Source: an uncultured Chloroflexia bacterium
Lineage (GTDB): Bacteria > Chloroflexota > Limnocylindria > Limnocylindrales > CSP1-4
NCBI GenBank assembly: GCA_963716025.1
Contig: CAVQSY010000041.1
Coordinates: forward strand, 6,985 to 70,984
DNA: 64,000 nucleotides
Direction: 5' to 3'
Every line of letters begins with the position of its first letter. Positions within the stretch are counted from its first letter, which is position 1. The notes under the pieces were generated by a model that was not told the origin of the DNA, did no database searches, and saw nothing but the letters and a program-made list of their open reading frames with translations. The position numbers and the translations under genes were made by a program. Shown here piece after piece: positions 3,604 through 31,200 of this stretch.

Positions 3604-4289
3604 GGCGCCTCCGAGGACCGGTGCTCGTCGCGCTCGTCGCGCTCCCGCTCGCCGCGCTGGGCACCGGATGCGGTGGCCCGGGGTCGTCGGATGCACCAGG
3701 GCCCGCCTCGACTGGCTCGCCCGCGGCAGTCACCACGACTCCGACCGCAAGCCCCGGCGCGACTCTGACCGCGAGCCCGATCCCATCGGCGCCGGGGTCC
3801 CCATCGGCTGGGTCGTCGCCCTCGCCTTCGTCGTCGAGCACCGTCCGCGCCGTCGAGGACCCCGCGCTCATCGAGATCCTCCCCGCCGAGGTTGCCGGCA
3901 ACCCCGTCACCCTCGAGTCCCTCGCCTTCGCGGAGGCCCTGGCCGACCCCGGGTTTGCGGCCAACATCGAGGCCGCCGCCTTCGGCATCGTCGTGGCCGG
4001 CAACGACCTCGCGTCCGCCGTGGTGGCAAGGCCCGTCGACGGCGTGGTGACCGACGCCTGGTTCCGCGACTGGCGCGACTCGTACAACGAGGGCGCCTGC
4101 GCCCAGTCCGGTGGCGTCGCGGGCAACGCCGAGGCCGACATCGGCGGCCGGACGGTCCACATCGGGACGTGCGCTGGGGGCCTTCGCACGTACCACACCT
4201 GGATCGAGGACCGCGGCCTGCTGGTCTCGGCGTTCTCGATCGGCGAGGGCCGGTTCGGCGAGCAGCTGATGGCGGGCCTGCGCCCCTGA
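3600..4289 (+). CDS. lipoprotein, unknown function
   Basis: GTG start overlapping the upstream stop. N-terminus [24 protein letters not shown] has a lipobox (LGTGC), followed by a Ser/Pro/Thr-rich linker and a globular domain. Confidence 0.55.
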
Positions 4290-23618: not shown

Positions 23619-23695
23619 GCCCCCATCGTCTAGAGGCCTAGGACGCCACCCTTTCAAGGTGGAGATCGCCGGTTCGAATCCGGCTGGGGGTACCA
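23619..23695 (+). tRNA. tRNA-Glu (anticodon UUC)
   Basis: GCCCCCATCGTCTAGAGGCCTAGGACGCCACCCTTTCAAGGTGGAGATCGCCGGTTCGAATCCGGCTGGGGGTACCA has a cloverleaf with anticodon loop CTTTCAA and a GGTTCGAATCC T-arm; CCA is encoded. Confidence 0.85.
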
Positions 23696-23769
23696 CCTTC
23701 CCCGGCCCCGGATCGGTGGACAAGCCCCCTGGCCTGACACGAACTCCGCGCCTGCGGCATGCTGCCGTC

Positions 23770-24726
23770 GTGACCCTGGTGCCGTTCACGCACGAGCACG
23801 TCCTGCCGGCCGCGGCGCTGGTGGCTGCGGGCATTGATCGCCTCCGCCACCGCGTGCCCCCGGTCCCGCCGTCGTGGACCGATCCGGCGCGCGTGGCGCG
23901 GGTGCTGGCCGGGCTCGCCGATCAAGGCGCCGGTCTGGCGGCCATCGACGACGGTGATCTCGTCGCCTTCCAGGCGGCGATCACCATCGACGGGCGAGGC
24001 GGACGCTGGACCTACACGTCCGACGTGGGCCATGCCGCGCCTCCTGACCCCGACGGAAGGCTGCGGACGCGGCTGTACGCCGCGCTGGCCGATGGCTGGA
24101 TCCGGGGCGCCAGCCCGGAGCACGTGATCTCGGTTCCTGCCGACGACGAGGTGGCGCTCGCGACGTATGCGCGGCTCGGGTTCGGGCGGCACATGATCGA
24201 CCGCATCGGGCCACTTTCGTCGATCGAGCGCGGCCCGCTCCCGGCGGGCGTCACGCTCCGGCGTGCCGGGCCCGCGGACGCAGCGGCGATCGCCGGGCTT
24301 GATGCCCACCTCCGCCGTCACCTCGAGGCGTCGCCGGTCTTCGTGCGGCCTGGTGCGTCACCGCCGGTCGAGGTTGGGCGCGGACGCCTTGGGGACCCCT
24401 CCATCGCCACGTTCATCGCCGAGCGCGACGGTGCCGCGATGGCATTCCTGCGGATCGGGCCGTGCGCCACGGACGTCGCGACGATCGTGCGCGACCCGGG
24501 AACGGCGAGCGTGACGGGTGCCTTCACGCACCCGGAGGTCCGGGGCAGGGAGATCGGCTCGCACCTGCTGGCGGCCGCCGTCGCCTGGGCCGAGACGGAG
24601 GGGTATGTCCGGTGGGCCGTGGATCACGAGTCCGCGAACGGCGAGGCCTTCCGGTTCTTTGCCCGGCACGCGACGCCCGTGACCGTCTCGATGAGCCGGA
24701 GGCTGGCTCCATTCCTGGTCCCGTGA
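23770..24726 (+). CDS. GNAT-family N-acetyltransferase (two-domain)
   Basis: GTG start downstream of the tRNA. C-terminal ...REIGSHLLAAAVAWAETEGYVRWAVDHESANGEAFRFFARHA... is a GNAT core. The 5' part of the track ORF 23617..24726 overlaps the tRNA and was excluded. Confidence 0.6.
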   Translation: MTLVPFTHEHVLPAAALVAAGIDRLRHRVPPVPPSWTDPARVARVLAGLADQGAGLAAIDDGDLVAFQAAITIDGRGGRWTYTSDVGHAAPPDPDGRLRTRLYAALADGWIRGASPEHVISVPADDEVALATYARLGFGRHMIDRIGPLSSIERGPLPAGVTLRRAGPADAAAIAGLDAHLRRHLEASPVFVRPGASPPVEVGRGRLGDPSIATFIAERDGAAMAFLRIGPCATDVATIVRDPGTASVTGAFTHPEVRGREIGSHLLAAAVAWAETEGYVRWAVDHESANGEAFRFFARHATPVTVSMSRRLAPFLVP

Positions 24727-24782
24727 GGAATTTGGCCGACCGGGGACGGCTGCCGGCCGTGCCCCCTGCTATCCTCCGGGCG

Positions 24783-25136
24783 ATGGAGCTGATGGGCGTG
24801 ACGATCCGCACAATCGTCAAGGACAACGTCGCGATCCGGTGTGACGGCTGCCGGGACATCATCCCGGGCACCCCGTGGCGCGTGAACCTGCTCGACATCG
24901 TCGCTCCTGAGGTCGCGGTCGGCTGGACCGAGTCGTCCCCTGTGAACCCTGGCCCGCACCAGTTCCACTCGGACCCCGCATGTGTCCGCCGATGGATGGC
25001 CGAGAAGGGTTACCGGTTCTGCCGGCGGGGCGAGGTCCGCGAGATCATGCGTCCGGTGCCTCTGCCCACGGAGCCCCCGTCGTGGGGACTGTGTGATGGC
25101 ATCCACCGCGACGATCACGAGTTCGTCCCGGCCTGA
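24783..25136 (+). CDS. small Cys/His-rich hypothetical protein
   Basis: 117 aa from MELMGVTIRTIVKDNVAIRCDGCRD..., with several Cys and His residues suggesting metal binding. ATG at 24783. Confidence 0.4.
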   Translation: MELMGVTIRTIVKDNVAIRCDGCRDIIPGTPWRVNLLDIVAPEVAVGWTESSPVNPGPHQFHSDPACVRRWMAEKGYRFCRRGEVREIMRPVPLPTEPPSWGLCDGIHRDDHEFVPA

Positions 25137-25497
25137 TCCGAACTCGTCCCGGCTCTGATCCGGACCTGCCCGCGTGTCCGCGCGCCGCGACCGATCCCCA
25201 GGCTCTCCGTCCCGACCCCGTCCACCCTGCCGCCCCGGCGCAGCGCCTGGACCGTGCCGTCGCGGGCCACCAGGTCGCACCTGGCCGTCGCGGGCCAGCC
25301 AGGGAGGTGCCAGATATCAGCCCTGACTGCTGCAAGCGCGGCAGGTCCGGCCTGAGGCCCGCCGAATATCAGTTGCGGCTGATGTAATCGATTGGCACCT
25401 GCGCGGGCTCGGTCGAACATCAGCCCAGGGTGATATCCGGCGGATTGGTGTCCGCCCTGCCCCCACCCCCAGCCACGACACACGATCCGTGGTGCGG

Positions 25498-25527
25498 TTG
25501 ACGACCCTCGGCAGGCGCCCCTACACT
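25498..25527 (+). promoter_or_regulatory. candidate sigma70-like promoter (TTGACG, 18-nt spacer, TACACT) upstream of the HTH regulator
   Basis: TTGACGaccctcggcaggcgcccCTACACT lies about 70 nt upstream of the GTG at 25600, followed by a direct repeat AGATTTGC x2 in the leader. Confidence 0.2.
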
Positions 25528-25599
25528 CCGCGCCGCCGGGTCTGCGACAACGGACCCAGATTTGCCAAGATTTGCTGCCTCTCCCCGCCTGGAGCACCT

Positions 25600-26319
25600 G
25601 TGCCCGACCAGCGGCCATCCCCCGAGCGGCCCCAGCCGGAGCGCCTTGCGCTCGGCGAGGCGAGCCGGCTCCTGGGCGTGGATCCTGACACGCTCCGCCG
25701 CTGGGCCGACGAGGGCCGGGTCCCTGCCTTCACGACGCCTGGCGGACACCGCCGCTTTGACCGGCGGGCGCTGGAGCGCCTGATGGCCGCGCGGCGGACC
25801 GGTCCTGCAGGTGGCCTGGCGGGTGTCGGCGCCAGCCAGGGCCGCCTGAGCGCGGCGTACCGGCGCCGCTACGGCCTGTCCCATGGCGGCACGCTGGACC
25901 CGCGGATGACGGTGCGCGCCGAGGACCGGGAGGCGTTCCGCGAGCTGGGTCGGGGCCTGGTTGACGCCCTGGTCCGCCACCTCGACGAGGCGGGTCCTGG
26001 CCGCGCGCTTGCCGAACGAGACGCCCTTGAGCTCGCCGCGCAGTTCGGGGAGCGGCTGGCTGCGCACGGTGCCCCGCTCGCCGGCGGGGTCTCCATGTTC
26101 GTCAACGCACGCCAGCCGTTCCTCGCCGAGCTGTCGGTCTTCGCCCGGCGACGTGCCGTGGATGCCTCGCGCATCGGCGAGCTGTACGACGCCTCGACGG
26201 GCCTCCTCGATCGCCTGCTGCTCGCCTTCGTGGCGGCGCACGAGGGCGCGTCGTCGACCGCTGCCGTCCCTCCCGAGCGGGCAGGTCGGCCATCGCCGGT
26301 CGTTCCGGCCGGGGACTGA
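25600..26319 (+). CDS. excisionase/MerR-superfamily HTH DNA-binding regulator
   Basis: GTG start with GGAG 5 nt upstream. N-terminal LALGEASRLLGVDPDTLRRWADEGRVPAFTTPGGHRRFDRRALERL is a MerR/excisionase-type HTH. The long C-terminal domain is uncharacterised. Confidence 0.6.
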   Translation: MPDQRPSPERPQPERLALGEASRLLGVDPDTLRRWADEGRVPAFTTPGGHRRFDRRALERLMAARRTGPAGGLAGVGASQGRLSAAYRRRYGLSHGGTLDPRMTVRAEDREAFRELGRGLVDALVRHLDEAGPGRALAERDALELAAQFGERLAAHGAPLAGGVSMFVNARQPFLAELSVFARRRAVDASRIGELYDASTGLLDRLLLAFVAAHEGASSTAAVPPERAGRPSPVVPAGD

Positions 26320-28317: not shown

Positions 28318-29199
28318 TTGATGCGCGTTCGAAAAGCCGTCTTCCCGGCTGCCGGCTGGGGCACCCGCTTCCTGCCGGCCACCAAGGCCCAGCCCAAGGA
28401 GATGCTGCCCCTGGTCGACAAGCCGGTCATCCAGTACGCGGTCGAGGAGGCGGTGGCTGCCGGCATCGAGCAGGTCATCATCGTCACCTCTTCGCAGAAG
28501 CGGATGATCGAGGACCACTTCGACCTCAACTACGAGCTGGAGCACCTGCTCGAGGAGAAGGGTGAGATCGAGAAGCTTCGCCAGGTGCGGCACATCAGTG
28601 ACCTGGCCCAGGTGGCCTACGTGCGCCAGAAGGAGCAGCTCGGCCTCGGCCACGCGGTCCTGATGGCGAAGGACCTCATCGGTCACGAGCCGTTCGCGGT
28701 GATCCTGCCCGACGACGTGGTGATCGCGGACCGGCCCTGCATCGGCCAGCTGATCCATGCCTACCACCAGCACCACGGCAGCGTGGTGGCTGTGGCCGAG
28801 GTCGCACCCGAGGACACCAGCCGCTACGGCGTGATCGCCGGCGAGCCGGTCACCGAGGGCCACGACCAGGACCGGACCTACCGTCTCACCGCCATCGTGG
28901 AGAAGCCGGAGCCGGGCACGGCCCCGTCCAACCTCGCGGTCATCGGTCGCTATGTCCTGACCCCCAAGATCTTCGACAAGCTGGAGCAGACACAGCGCGG
29001 TGCCGGCGGCGAGATCCAGCTGACCGACGCCATCCAGGCCCTGATGGACGAACAGAGCGTGTTCGGCTACGCCTACGAGGGCACGCGCTATGACGCCGGC
29101 ACCACGATGGGCTGGCTCCGCGCGTCCGTCGAGCTGGCGCTCGCCCGCCCGGAGTTCGGGAGCGAGTTCCGGGAGTACCTCCGCTCGCTGGACATCTAG
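28318..29199 (+). CDS. galU: UTP--glucose-1-phosphate uridylyltransferase
   Basis: MRVRKAVFPAAGWGTRFLPATKAQPKEMLPLVDKPVIQYAVEEA... is the GalU signature. Confidence 0.85.
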   Translation: MMRVRKAVFPAAGWGTRFLPATKAQPKEMLPLVDKPVIQYAVEEAVAAGIEQVIIVTSSQKRMIEDHFDLNYELEHLLEEKGEIEKLRQVRHISDLAQVAYVRQKEQLGLGHAVLMAKDLIGHEPFAVILPDDVVIADRPCIGQLIHAYHQHHGSVVAVAEVAPEDTSRYGVIAGEPVTEGHDQDRTYRLTAIVEKPEPGTAPSNLAVIGRYVLTPKIFDKLEQTQRGAGGEIQLTDAIQALMDEQSVFGYAYEGTRYDAGTTMGWLRASVELALARPEFGSEFREYLRSLDI

Positions 29200-29250: not shown

Positions 29251-31200
29251 GTGGCGACAGACCCCCGGCACGAGAAGGGGACGAGCAGAACCGTGACTGA
29301 GATCGGGAGCGTGCTGGGCGGCCGCTATCGCCTGGTCGAGCTGCTCGGCCAGGGAGGCATGGCGACCATCTTCCGGGCGCGGGACGCCCAGCTGGATCGT
29401 GACGTCGCCGTCAAGCTGCTGCGCGCCGAGCTCGGGCGGGACCCGGACTTCCTGGCCCGCTTCCGCGACGAGGCCCGGGCTGCCGCCTCGCTCAACCACC
29501 CGAACATCGTGTCCGTCTTCGATTTCGGCGAGGAGGCATCCGGCCCGTACATCGTGATGGAGCTCATCGACGGCCAGGACCTGGCATCGATGCTGCGCGA
29601 GAACGGCCCGCTCGCACCCCGCCAGGCCACCAGGGTCGCCGCCGAGGTCGCCAAGGCGCTCCACGCGGCCCACGTGCGCGGGATCGTCCATCGCGACGTC
29701 AAGCCGTCGAACATCCTCGTCGGCCGCGACGGGCGGGTGAAGGTCGCGGACTTCGGGATCGCCCGTGCCCTCGCCGAGTCACAGTCGACCTCGCCCGGCG
29801 TCACGATGGGCTCGGTCCACTACTTCAGCCCCGAGCAGGCCCGCGGCGAGGCTGCCACTCAGGCGTCCGACATCTACGCCCTCGGGATCGTCCTCTACGA
29901 GGCGCTCACCGGCCAGCGTCCGTTCTCCGGCGATGGGGCGGCATCCGTCGCCCTGGCCCGCCTGACCACCACGCCCCCGCGACCCTCGGCGCTGCGAGCG
30001 GGCACACCGGTCGAGCTTGACCGGATCGTGCAGCGGGCGATGGCCCTCGACCCGGCGGACCGGTTCGCATCCTCGGCGTCCATGGCGAGTGCCCTCGAGG
30101 GCTGGCTGTCGGACCCGGCGGCGGCGCAGCCCTCGACGACCGCTGCCGGCGGGGCCACCGCCGCAACCCGCACCGTGGCCTCCGCGCAGGCTCGCCAGAA
30201 CGCCGTGCCCTATGCGGCCGACGCCTACGCACGGTCCGCGCCGCCCACCCCGGTCACCACGCGGGGGACGCCGCCGCCGCCCCCCGGATCCAGCTTTGAC
30301 GGTGACGATGGTGGCGGCTCCGGCCCCTGGGCCTGGATCGCCGGCCTGATCGGGCTCGTCATCCTCGCCATCGTCGGCTTCCTCGTGTTCCAGATGCTCA
30401 CCGGCGGCGGAGATGCGTCGCCCTCCGCCAGCCCGTCCGCGTCCGCGTCGGAGTCGGCATCGGCCGGGACCGTGAGCGTGCCCAGCTTCGTCGACCTCAC
30501 CATCGCCGACGCTCAGTCGCAGGCGGATCTGCTCGGTATCCGGCTGGTCATCGCGGGGACCGAGGAGCGCACGGACATCGATCCCGACATCGTGCTCACG
30601 CAGGAGCCGCCCGAGGGGACCTCGATCGCCGAGGGCGCCGAGGTCAGGATCACCATCTCCCGGGGTCCCACCTCCGTGGCCGTGCCGGACATCCGGACGA
30701 GGCCGGAGAACGAGGCGCTCCAGCTCATCGTCACCGCGCAGCTCTCGGTCGGCCAGAAGACCACGGCCTTCGACCCGACCATCCCGAAGAACACCGTCAT
30801 CTCGCAGAGCCCGAGCCCGGGCATCCTCGTGGCGCTCGGCACGCCGGTCGACTACGTGGTGTCCGCCGGCCCCGAGCCGACGCCGTCACCGACTCCAAGT
30901 CCCACGCCGTCACCGACTCCAAGTCCCACGCCGGCTCCGACCCCGACCCCGACGCCCGCGCCGGTGAACGTCGGCGACTACCAGTGCGTGACGGTCGAGG
31001 TGGCCACGAACCTGATCGATGCCGACGGCTTCGCCCTGGGTACGGTGACCTCCTCGCCGGCGGGCACCAGCCCGGTCCCGCAGACGTGGATCGTGATCGA
31101 CCAGACGCCCAACCCGGGGGTGAAGCGCCCACTCGGGACCGCGATCAACCTCGTTGCCGCCGACCCCGCCGACCCGGCCACCGTGGCGGCCTGTCCCTGA
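29251..31200 (+). CDS. Ser/Thr protein kinase with extracellular PASTA domains (PknB-like)
   Basis: Hanks kinase core (GGMATIFRA..., HRDVKPSNIL, DFGIA), then a TM segment and PASTA-like repeats separated by a PT-rich linker. Confidence 0.85.
   Translation: MATDPRHEKGTSRTVTEIGSVLGGRYRLVELLGQGGMATIFRARDAQLDRDVAVKLLRAELGRDPDFLARFRDEARAAASLNHPNIVSVFDFGEEASGPYIVMELIDGQDLASMLRENGPLAPRQATRVAAEVAKALHAAHVRGIVHRDVKPSNILVGRDGRVKVADFGIARALAESQSTSPGVTMGSVHYFSPEQARGEAATQASDIYALGIVLYEALTGQRPFSGDGAASVALARLTTTPPRPSALRAGTPVELDRIVQRAMALDPADRFASSASMASALEGWLSDPAAAQPSTTAAGGATAATRTVASAQARQNAVPYAADAYARSAPPTPVTTRGTPPPPPGSSFDGDDGGGSGPWAWIAGLIGLVILAIVGFLVFQMLTGGGDASPSASPSASASESASAGTVSVPSFVDLTIADAQSQADLLGIRLVIAGTEERTDIDPDIVLTQEPPEGTSIAEGAEVRITISRGPTSVAVPDIRTRPENEALQLIVTAQLSVGQKTTAFDPTIPKNTVISQSPSPGILVALGTPVDYVVSAGPEPTPSPTPSPTPSPTPSPTPAPTPTPTPAPVNVGDYQCVTVEVATNLIDADGFALGTVTSSPAGTSPVPQTWIVIDQTPNPGVKRPLGTAINLVAADPADPATVAACP
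30881..30928 (+). repeat. perfect 24-bp tandem duplication inside the PASTA-kinase PT-linker
   Basis: CGCCGTCACCGACTCCAAGTCCCA occurs twice back to back, encoding PSPTPSPT PSPTPSPT. Confidence 0.7.

Follow-up and report, generated by a model that had tools for sequence, protein, structure and literature searches.

The 64-kb window analyzed here, the whole stretch of DNA taken from an uncultured metagenome-assembled genome, contains a 463-nt gap (25137-25599) in front of a regulator gene, between the stop codon of a 117-residue cysteine-rich open reading frame (ORF; 24783-25136) and the GTG start codon of the regulator (25600). The locus raises the question of which elements in this gap control the regulator. 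An earlier note on this DNA, whose delimitation of the gap was confirmed, had described an AT-richer island with several motifs, and had suggested an operator cluster for the downstream excisionase/MerR-type regulator, a small RNA, or the remnant of an element integrated next to tRNA-Glu. The scope of the work is the window together with 8.7-kb pieces of other genomes. As judged by sequence comparison, the gap is made up of two parts that are unrelated to each other, a conserved segment of the last ~100 nt and a lineage-specific segment of ~300 nt. The elements concerned are the following, in window coordinates:

25137-25599, the gap, 463 nt
~25140-25490, no strand assigned, strain-specific extra segment (the insert) of ~290-350 nt, from alignments with relatives; the right edge is approximate
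25498-25527, forward strand, sigma-70-type promoter from a promoter scan, with the -35 hexamer TTGACG at 25498-25503, an 18-nt spacer, and the -10 hexamer TACACT at 25522-25527
25552-25574, forward strand, predicted operator, ACC followed by the head-to-tail 10-nt repeats CCCAGATTTG (25555-25564) and CCAAGATTTG (25565-25574)
25591-25594, forward strand, GGAG ribosome-binding site, 5 nt 5' of the GTG start, read from the sequence
25600-26319, forward strand, HTH_17/MerR-type regulator, 239 residues, GTG start

The regulator protein was scanned against one genome per species, which yielded 80 loci, and syntenic flanking genes were found in 35 of them (L001-L034 and L065), in the conserved order tRNA-Glu, (GNAT), small ORF, regulator, membrane protein, hydrolase, and galU. 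When the gap was compared with these loci by blastn, only its last ~105 nt (25493-25597) gave matches, always directly 5' of the regulator gene. The distance from the stop codon of the small ORF to the start of the regulator is ~150-200 nt in most orthologous loci and 134-190 nt in the closest relatives, versus 463 nt here. The insert, located between the small-ORF stop codon and the -35 hexamer, holds a long palindrome and every ATATCAG, ATCAG, and GATATC motif of the gap, and it is absent from L001-L005, L081, and L083 (alignments A1 and A2), which include a Logan contig with a regulator 87% identical. A comparative alignment of the orthologous regions, as proposed by the earlier note, therefore divides its candidates: 25498-25574 is conserved in ~35 Limnocylindria genomes, whereas the segment with the ATATCAG and ATCAG motifs occurs in no relative. 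A regulatory site for the regulator does exist in the gap, since the promoter and the AGATTTGC repeats are real, conserved, and linked to the regulator. The ATATCAG and ATCAG-n-CTGAT motifs are, however, not supported as an operator cluster, since none of the orthologous loci, the closest relatives included, has the ~300 nt in which they lie.

The promoter-like element TTGACG-18-TACACT proposed by the earlier note was confirmed at 25498-25527. It is the only sigma-70-like match in 24700-25900 (0.0 expected), and most orthologous loci conserve both hexamers and a spacer of 17 to 18 nt, the sequence of which varies freely. Across the 38 distinct sequences of the promoter/repeat alignment, the consensus layout has TTGAC(G/A) at -35 and TACACT, TAGACT, or TATCCT at -10. 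The -35 hexamer is lost in four loci, three of which (L006, L008, and L025) carry TGn directly before the -10, forming an extended -10, and TGn is never found before the -10 where the -35 is intact. In these three loci, the missing -35 is matched by gain of TGn, which is the compensatory pattern expected of a working promoter. The extended -10 elements stand before TACACT at ~3895-3912 in both L006 and L008 and at ~3895-3910 in L025 (alignment A3, columns 20-52). The GGAG is also kept before the start codon in the orthologues.

The two copies of AGATTTGC that had been placed in the leader of the regulator gene were recovered at 25558-25565 and 25568-25575. They are conserved, tied to the downstream excisionase/MerR-type regulator, and part of the 10-nt tandem repeat CCCAGATTTG/CCAAGATTTG, which is located 27 nt from the -10 in the window. 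The repeat consensus in the 38 sequences is ACCyAGrTTTrCCnAGrTTy, where A1, T4, T5, and A11 are invariant and eight more positions are common to at least 35 sequences, and the flanks are nearly random (0.04-0.35 bits per position). In the orthologous loci, the repeat is 24-29 nt from the -10 and 27-72 nt from the start codon; because the former distance is nearly fixed and the latter variable, the site is anchored to the promoter. At most 0.01 copies of the tandem AGATTTGC repeat are expected per window, and the tandem AGrTTT-N4-AGrTTy motif is unique in the 64 kb (0.00-0.08 expected).

The pattern AG[AGT]TT[TC]N4AG[AGT]TT[TC] gave 30 matches in the 80 loci. All 30 are at most 160 nt 5' of a regulator homologue and on the same strand (12.5 kb of sequence), with no match in the remaining 584 kb. 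Nine of these matches, in eight loci, belong to paralogues 38-43% identical in other Limnocylindria genomes, and the paralogue loci are without the small ORF, the membrane protein, and galU. In at least four of them, the paralogue is directly upstream of a hemC-hemD fusion, hemB (ALAD), or hemA (glutamyl-tRNA reductase) (L036, 3977-7394; L037, 3968-7346; L043, 3980-7333; L047, 3968-5819). The presence of the same repeat before paralogues in a different gene context shows that the motif follows the regulator gene and not its neighbors. For some of the paralogues, a mere 4 nt separate the -10 from the first repeat, which puts the beginning of the repeats at the probable transcription start or upstream of it.

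The presence of the repeat also covaries with residues of the DNA-binding domain. Homologues that lack the repeat have A[SC]x in place of ASR in the first helix and G[DE] in place of G[RQ], the second change falling at the position of Lys36 of BldC, a regulator of Streptomyces. Among these are the Actinomycetota homologues (L050-L072, e.g., L066, L068, and L070), which are 32-37% identical and have no tandem repeat upstream. They follow, without a gap, a gene with repeated CxxCH motifs at its 3' end (~200 nt before the match), which suggests a multiheme cytochrome. A further group of Limnocylindria homologues (L040, L044, L045, L060, L077, and L079) is without the strict 10-bp tandem and carries a different repeated motif ~60-130 nt before the match, for example AGATTCGAGCG twice, ~21 nt apart, in L044. 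The motif of the L040/L044 subgroup may be a variant operator.

The regulator, for which a protein search returned more than 2,400 homologues, consists of a BldC-like winged helix-turn-helix (residues ~15-65) and a helical, globin-fold-like sensor domain (residues ~100-222). Pfam HTH_17, MerR, and MerR_1 were matched at residues 18-66, and the best NCBIfam match was HTH_BldC (NF033787), at 48.5 bits. In a phmmer search of the PDB, the top matches were 6AMK (E = 1e-6) and 6AMA (E = 9e-6), both BldC-DNA complexes, and the next was 8JBS, a CarH-like cobalamin photoreceptor (E = 2.3e-6). The AlphaFold model has a predicted local distance difference test (pLDDT) score of 74, with the domains scoring 77-94 and a disordered linker at residues 66-80. 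Foldseek placed BldC chains in its top seven positions, with TM scores of 0.80-0.88 (normalized to the BldC chain), a root mean square deviation of 1.0-1.2 Å, and 36-39% identity. Of the residues important in BldC, Arg30, Trp31, and His46 are kept in the regulator, and Lys36 is replaced by Arg. For the C-terminal domain, the Foldseek matches were pXO2-61, pXO1-118, globin-coupled sensors, and the RsbR N-domain, with TM scores of 0.5-0.7 (normalized to the target chain), and Pfam RsbRD_N is recorded on regulator homologues, mostly weakly. A heme ligand was considered for the sensor domain and rejected, given that no histidine is invariant across the two regulator subfamilies.

BldC binds direct repeats as head-to-tail multimers; in each repeat, His46 reads an AT-rich tetrad via the minor groove, and Arg30 reads a C-G pair (PMC5859096). 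Natural BldC sites include GATTTCCCC and CATTTGCAC (PMC5859096). Our reading of the locus is that CCCAGATTTG/CCAAGATTTG is the autoregulatory direct-repeat operator of the adjacent regulator, placed just downstream of the operon promoter, and that the insert is unrelated, lineage-specific DNA. We put the probability of this reading at roughly 0.6. The promoter at 25498-25527 would drive expression of the regulator and membrane protein genes and perhaps also that of the hydrolase gene. From the linkage of the repeats to the regulator gene, their covariation with its DNA-binding residues, and the BldC-like fold, we infer that two winged-helix domains of the regulator would bind CCCAGATTTG and CCAAGATTTG side by side in the same orientation, head to tail, as BldC does and as CarH is reported to do. 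Protein bound at the predicted operator, roughly between +20 and +40 relative to a predicted transcription start near 25533-25536, would then hinder promoter escape or elongation and produce negative autoregulation, and the C-terminal sensor domain may tune DNA binding in response to a signal.

Several observations weigh against this reading. The regulator fails the NCBIfam cut-off for HTH_BldC (48.5 versus 77 bits), and it has a helical C-terminal domain of ~120 residues that BldC lacks. Lys26 of BldC is Asp in the regulator, and Leu43, at the head-to-tail interface, is Pro. The repeat is out of register with the BldC consensus AATTxxxx(C). A wider regulon may exist, or a different binding protein may be encoded outside the inspected DNA. 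Finally, BldC can activate as well as repress, and the regulator might act in either sense.

The gene contexts of the relatives point toward a possible signal. The hem-linked position of the paralogues suggests that this subfamily controls tetrapyrrole synthesis. Because this sister subfamily heads hemA, hemCD, and hemB operons and the Actinomycetota relatives follow a CxxCH-rich gene, the regulators might form an undescribed, class-wide Limnocylindria family, with a BldC-type winged helix and a globin-fold sensor, that autoregulates through tandem AGrTTT and serves as a heme-, redox-, or gas-responsive switch, including feedback control of tetrapyrrole synthesis. This proposal is a tentative one, and we consider it rather doubtful.

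The remainder of the gap is occupied by the insert, the main features of which are the following:

25118-25161, forward strand, near-duplicate of the small-ORF 3' end, CGAGTTCGTCCCGGC-CTGATCC followed by CGAACTCGTCCCGGCTCTGATCC, marking the left junction of the insert
25357-25445, no strand assigned, imperfect palindrome (long hairpin) of 89 nt, an inverted repeat whose arms carry ATATCA/ATCAG

Most of the motifs of the earlier note fall in this segment. ATCAGTTGCGGCTGAT at 25368-25383, ATCAGCCCAGGGTGAT at 25419-25434, and GATATC at 25313-25318 and 25432-25437 are present as described. Two of the three ATATCAG motifs are exact copies (25314 and 25366), whereas the third is TGATAT, on the other strand (25431). 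These two copies, 52 nt apart, are the only ones in 64 kb (0.72 expected). The motifs are not independent of each other, since ATATCA/TGATAT and ATCAG/CTGAT are arms of nested inverted repeats that make up a single palindrome. The AT-richer island holds only in part: 25300-25599 dips to 65-67% guanine-plus-cytosine (GC), but the gap as a whole has 70.2% versus 72.6% for the window, and its left third (25137-25299), at 77.9%, is above the window average.

By comparison with the relatives, the insert is DNA acquired only in this lineage, without evidence of conserved function. Its role, if any, would be no more than that of a local hairpin separating two transcription units. It might also be a small non-autonomous mobile or repetitive element, resembling a miniature inverted-repeat transposable element or a repetitive extragenic palindromic sequence, or encode a strain-specific small RNA. 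This is compatible with an autoregulatory operator at CCCAGATTTG/CCAAGATTTG, but we regard it as unlikely. It would account for a lineage-specific insertion with a very stable 89-nt palindrome (minimum free energy of -49.6 kcal/mol; z = -5.76 on the forward strand and -6.08 on the reverse strand), and for a left junction where target-side sequence is duplicated, the last 21 nt of the small ORF being repeated in tandem with two changes, while relatives have one copy only. That duplication is, however, tandem and at one end only, not flanking. The GC content of 25140-25320 is periodic in a codon-like manner, with 87-100% GC at every third base running past the small-ORF stop, which hints at foreign or formerly coding DNA. 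The periodicity fits a minus-strand ORF of 167 residues (25115-25618), and the plus-frame read-through of the small ORF is of low complexity.

Against a mobile element, the insert has no blastn match in the 80 loci and no further copy in the window, the 64 kb of its own genome that were searched, and Tandem Repeats Finder detected no tandem array in it. The palindrome is not conserved in any relative. Two metagenome scans also gave nothing related: an exact 22-mer of the palindrome had no hits, and a degenerate pattern of its architecture had 19, every one of them dissimilar around the match and located in unrelated DNA with a GC content of 35-63%. A small RNA in the gap, although conceivable, finds no support in an Rfam match, a terminator, or conservation. 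Rfam matched only the tRNA in the whole window at gathering thresholds and gave chance-level matches, well below gathering scores, in 24700-25900 at E values up to 10, and the promoter/terminator scan found neither a promoter nor a terminator inside the insert.

Two other candidates in this segment were rejected. The minus-strand ORF was not retained as a gene: part of it coincides with the conserved promoter, Pfam gave no match for it, and a search of 1.84 billion representative proteins revealed no homologue. A terminator for the upstream genes was discarded because the scan found no intrinsic terminator and the hairpin across the small-ORF stop codon, formed by the duplicate at 25118-25161, is not significant (z = -0.66).

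A few other lineages have larger gaps between the small ORF and the regulator, e.g., ~880 nt in L020 (2634-3498). This gap is filled with unrelated DNA that contains a minus-strand ORF of 192 residues rich in Asp and Glu (acidic) and no similar palindrome. The spacer is a recurrent site of sequence gain.

The repeats themselves could be bound by a different protein that controls the regulator operon. Candidates are a stand-alone BldC from another part of the genome and an OmpR/PhoB-type response regulator, a class that also binds ~10-bp direct repeats. Direct repeats with a 10-bp period suit several families (PMC5859096, discussion), the register of the repeat departs from that of BldC, and only a small part of each genome was inspected. 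We nevertheless consider this distinctly unlikely, given that the motif accompanies the regulator gene in two unrelated contexts and is found nowhere else in 584 kb, and that its presence covaries with the DNA-binding residues of the regulator itself.

It is very unlikely that the repeats act in the mRNA leader, either as the site of an RNA-binding protein or within a riboswitch-like or attenuator structure through which translation or stability would be controlled. They do lie within the predicted 5' untranslated region, and in the clade of the window they are preceded by a small 5'-proximal hairpin (GGGUCYG...CGGACCC; z = -2.0 to -2.6). However, RNAalifold gave no consensus pair for the 38 sequences, the leaders as a whole are no more stable than shuffled sequences (mean z = +0.25; -0.14 for the leader in the window), and the pairing state of the repeats differs between genomes. 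A structured leader RNA was rejected on these grounds, both folding approaches being negative and no Rfam family being matched at gathering or relaxed thresholds. The spacing of the repeats also opposes a role in the leader, being fixed relative to the promoter and variable relative to the ribosome-binding site and start codon, as does the position of the repeats in those paralogues where they start 4 nt after the -10.

That the ATATCAG/ATCAG-n-CTGAT palindromes are operators of a MerR-type regulator, or that the region is the remnant of an element integrated next to tRNA-Glu, is barely credible. The only two ATATCAG copies in 64 kb do sit close together, the motifs do form palindromes, and classical MerR proteins bind palindromes. 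None of the orthologous loci has the segment, however, even though their regulators are 70-87% identical, and the motifs are 60-190 nt upstream of the -35 and outside a promoter spacer that is itself 17 to 18 nt and not palindromic. The DNA-binding domain is BldC-like, and domains of that type bind direct repeats. Synteny is conserved class-wide for tRNA-Glu and every flanking gene, and searches of the window revealed neither an integrase nor terminal repeats around the insert nor other copies of it.

The genes around the gap are all on the forward strand of the window, which has a GC content of 72.6% and encodes proteins nearest to those of metagenome-assembled genomes labeled Candidatus Limnocylindrales/Limnocylindria (Chloroflexota). 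Apart from the regulator, they are the following:

23619-23695, forward strand, tRNA-Glu(UUC)
~23758-24726, forward strand, GNAT acetyltransferase
24783-25136, forward strand, the 117-residue cysteine-rich ORF, from the ORF and its profile of GC at third codon positions; the gap begins directly after its stop codon
26325-27410, forward strand, membrane protein of 361 residues, from the ORF; it starts 6 nt past the regulator stop codon
27451-28236, forward strand, alpha/beta hydrolase
28318-29199, forward strand, galU
29251-31200, forward strand, serine/threonine kinase-like ORF, from reading the translation, with no profile test

The membrane protein is probably in the same transcript as the regulator. 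It matched no Pfam or NCBIfam family, and this multi-pass protein is 60-90% identical across the class, with conserved synteny. The 117-residue ORF gave no Pfam, NCBIfam, or PDB match. It is always directly 5' of the regulator and its promoter in the orthologous loci, and its identity is 84-92% in the close ones (L001-L025) and 65-69% in L026 and L027. In L001-L025, most of the proteins that neighbor it are only 50-85% identical, and galU is conserved to a similar degree. The small protein has a CDGC...C...C...C pattern and ends in HEFVPA.

Not all relatives have the GNAT gene that separates tRNA-Glu from the small ORF in the window; it is present in some and absent in others (L006, L022, and L030 were compared). 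Where it is absent, the tRNA is ~50 nt before the small ORF, and in L010 ~1.4 kb of other DNA separates the two. This variable spot by the tRNA is upstream of the small ORF and outside the gap at 25137-25599. The tRNA-Val called by ARAGORN inside the regulator coding sequence of L015 (4089-4172) is probably a false positive.

Limnocylindria are abundant, uncultured Chloroflexota of soil and fresh water, and to our knowledge none of their promoters or operators has been defined by experiment. The locus gives a phylogenetically footprinted sigma-70-type promoter for this class and, for a two-domain regulator that is widespread, a candidate operator with sharp limits. The predicted promoter/repeat region is a concrete test fragment. 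The most eye-catching motifs of the gap are strain-specific filler and not worth pursuing as operators.

Among known systems, the regulator resembles BldC of Streptomyces (6AMK and 6AMA) most closely in its DNA-binding domain, by sequence, profile, and fold, and it keeps Arg30, Trp31, and His46, the last within a GGHRR wing. The target is also similar, consisting here of head-to-tail ~10-bp repeats with an AT-rich tract in GC-rich DNA and a conserved G/C, as in GATTTCCCC and CATTTGCAC. BldC is, however, a single-domain protein of 68 residues, whereas the regulator has 239 residues and a sensor-like C-terminal domain. BldC is also pleiotropic, with many targets and a variable number of repeats, in contrast with the single predicted autoregulatory two-repeat site seen here. 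The regulator is thus not a strict member of the BldC family, being below the family cut-off and of two domains, with two key residues changed (Lys26 to Asp and Leu43 to Pro) and a different repeat register (ACCyAGrTTTrCCnAGrTTy versus AATTxxxx(C)).

CarH/LitR (5C8E and 8JBS) shares the order of a winged helix followed by a sensor domain; the TPGGHRRF wing motif of the regulator is common to 8JBS, and 5C8E is among the fold matches. The sensors differ, that of the regulator having an all-helical globin-type fold and that of CarH being a B12-binding Rossmann/four-helix module. As Jost et al. are said to have described in Nature in 2015, CarH binds tandem 11-bp direct repeats at its promoter, with three repeats over the -35, whereas the repeats here number two, have a 10-bp period, and follow the -10.

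Classical MerR proteins (MerR, SoxR, CueR, and BmrR) resemble the regulator in the Pfam MerR/MerR_1 match on the helix-turn-helix and in the location of the gene beside the target promoter. Their operators are dyad symmetric and lie inside an overlong spacer of 19 to 20 bp between the -35 and the -10. In contrast, the spacer here is 17 to 18 nt, has no palindrome, and is not conserved in sequence, and the predicted operator, a direct repeat, follows the -10. The regulator also has a disordered linker (66-80) directly after the wing instead of a coiled-coil dimerization helix.

The fold of the C-terminal domain is similar to those of the RsbR N-domain and of pXO1-118 and pXO2-61, which are globin-fold sensors without proven heme. 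In the regulator, this domain is fused to a DNA-binding domain, and is neither joined to STAS nor stand-alone; no relevant account of a winged helix fused to a globin sensor came up in a literature search. If the regulator does bind CCCAGATTTG and CCAAGATTTG as proposed, the head-to-tail mode in which the single-domain BldC binds direct repeats would also apply to a regulator fused to a globin-type sensor.

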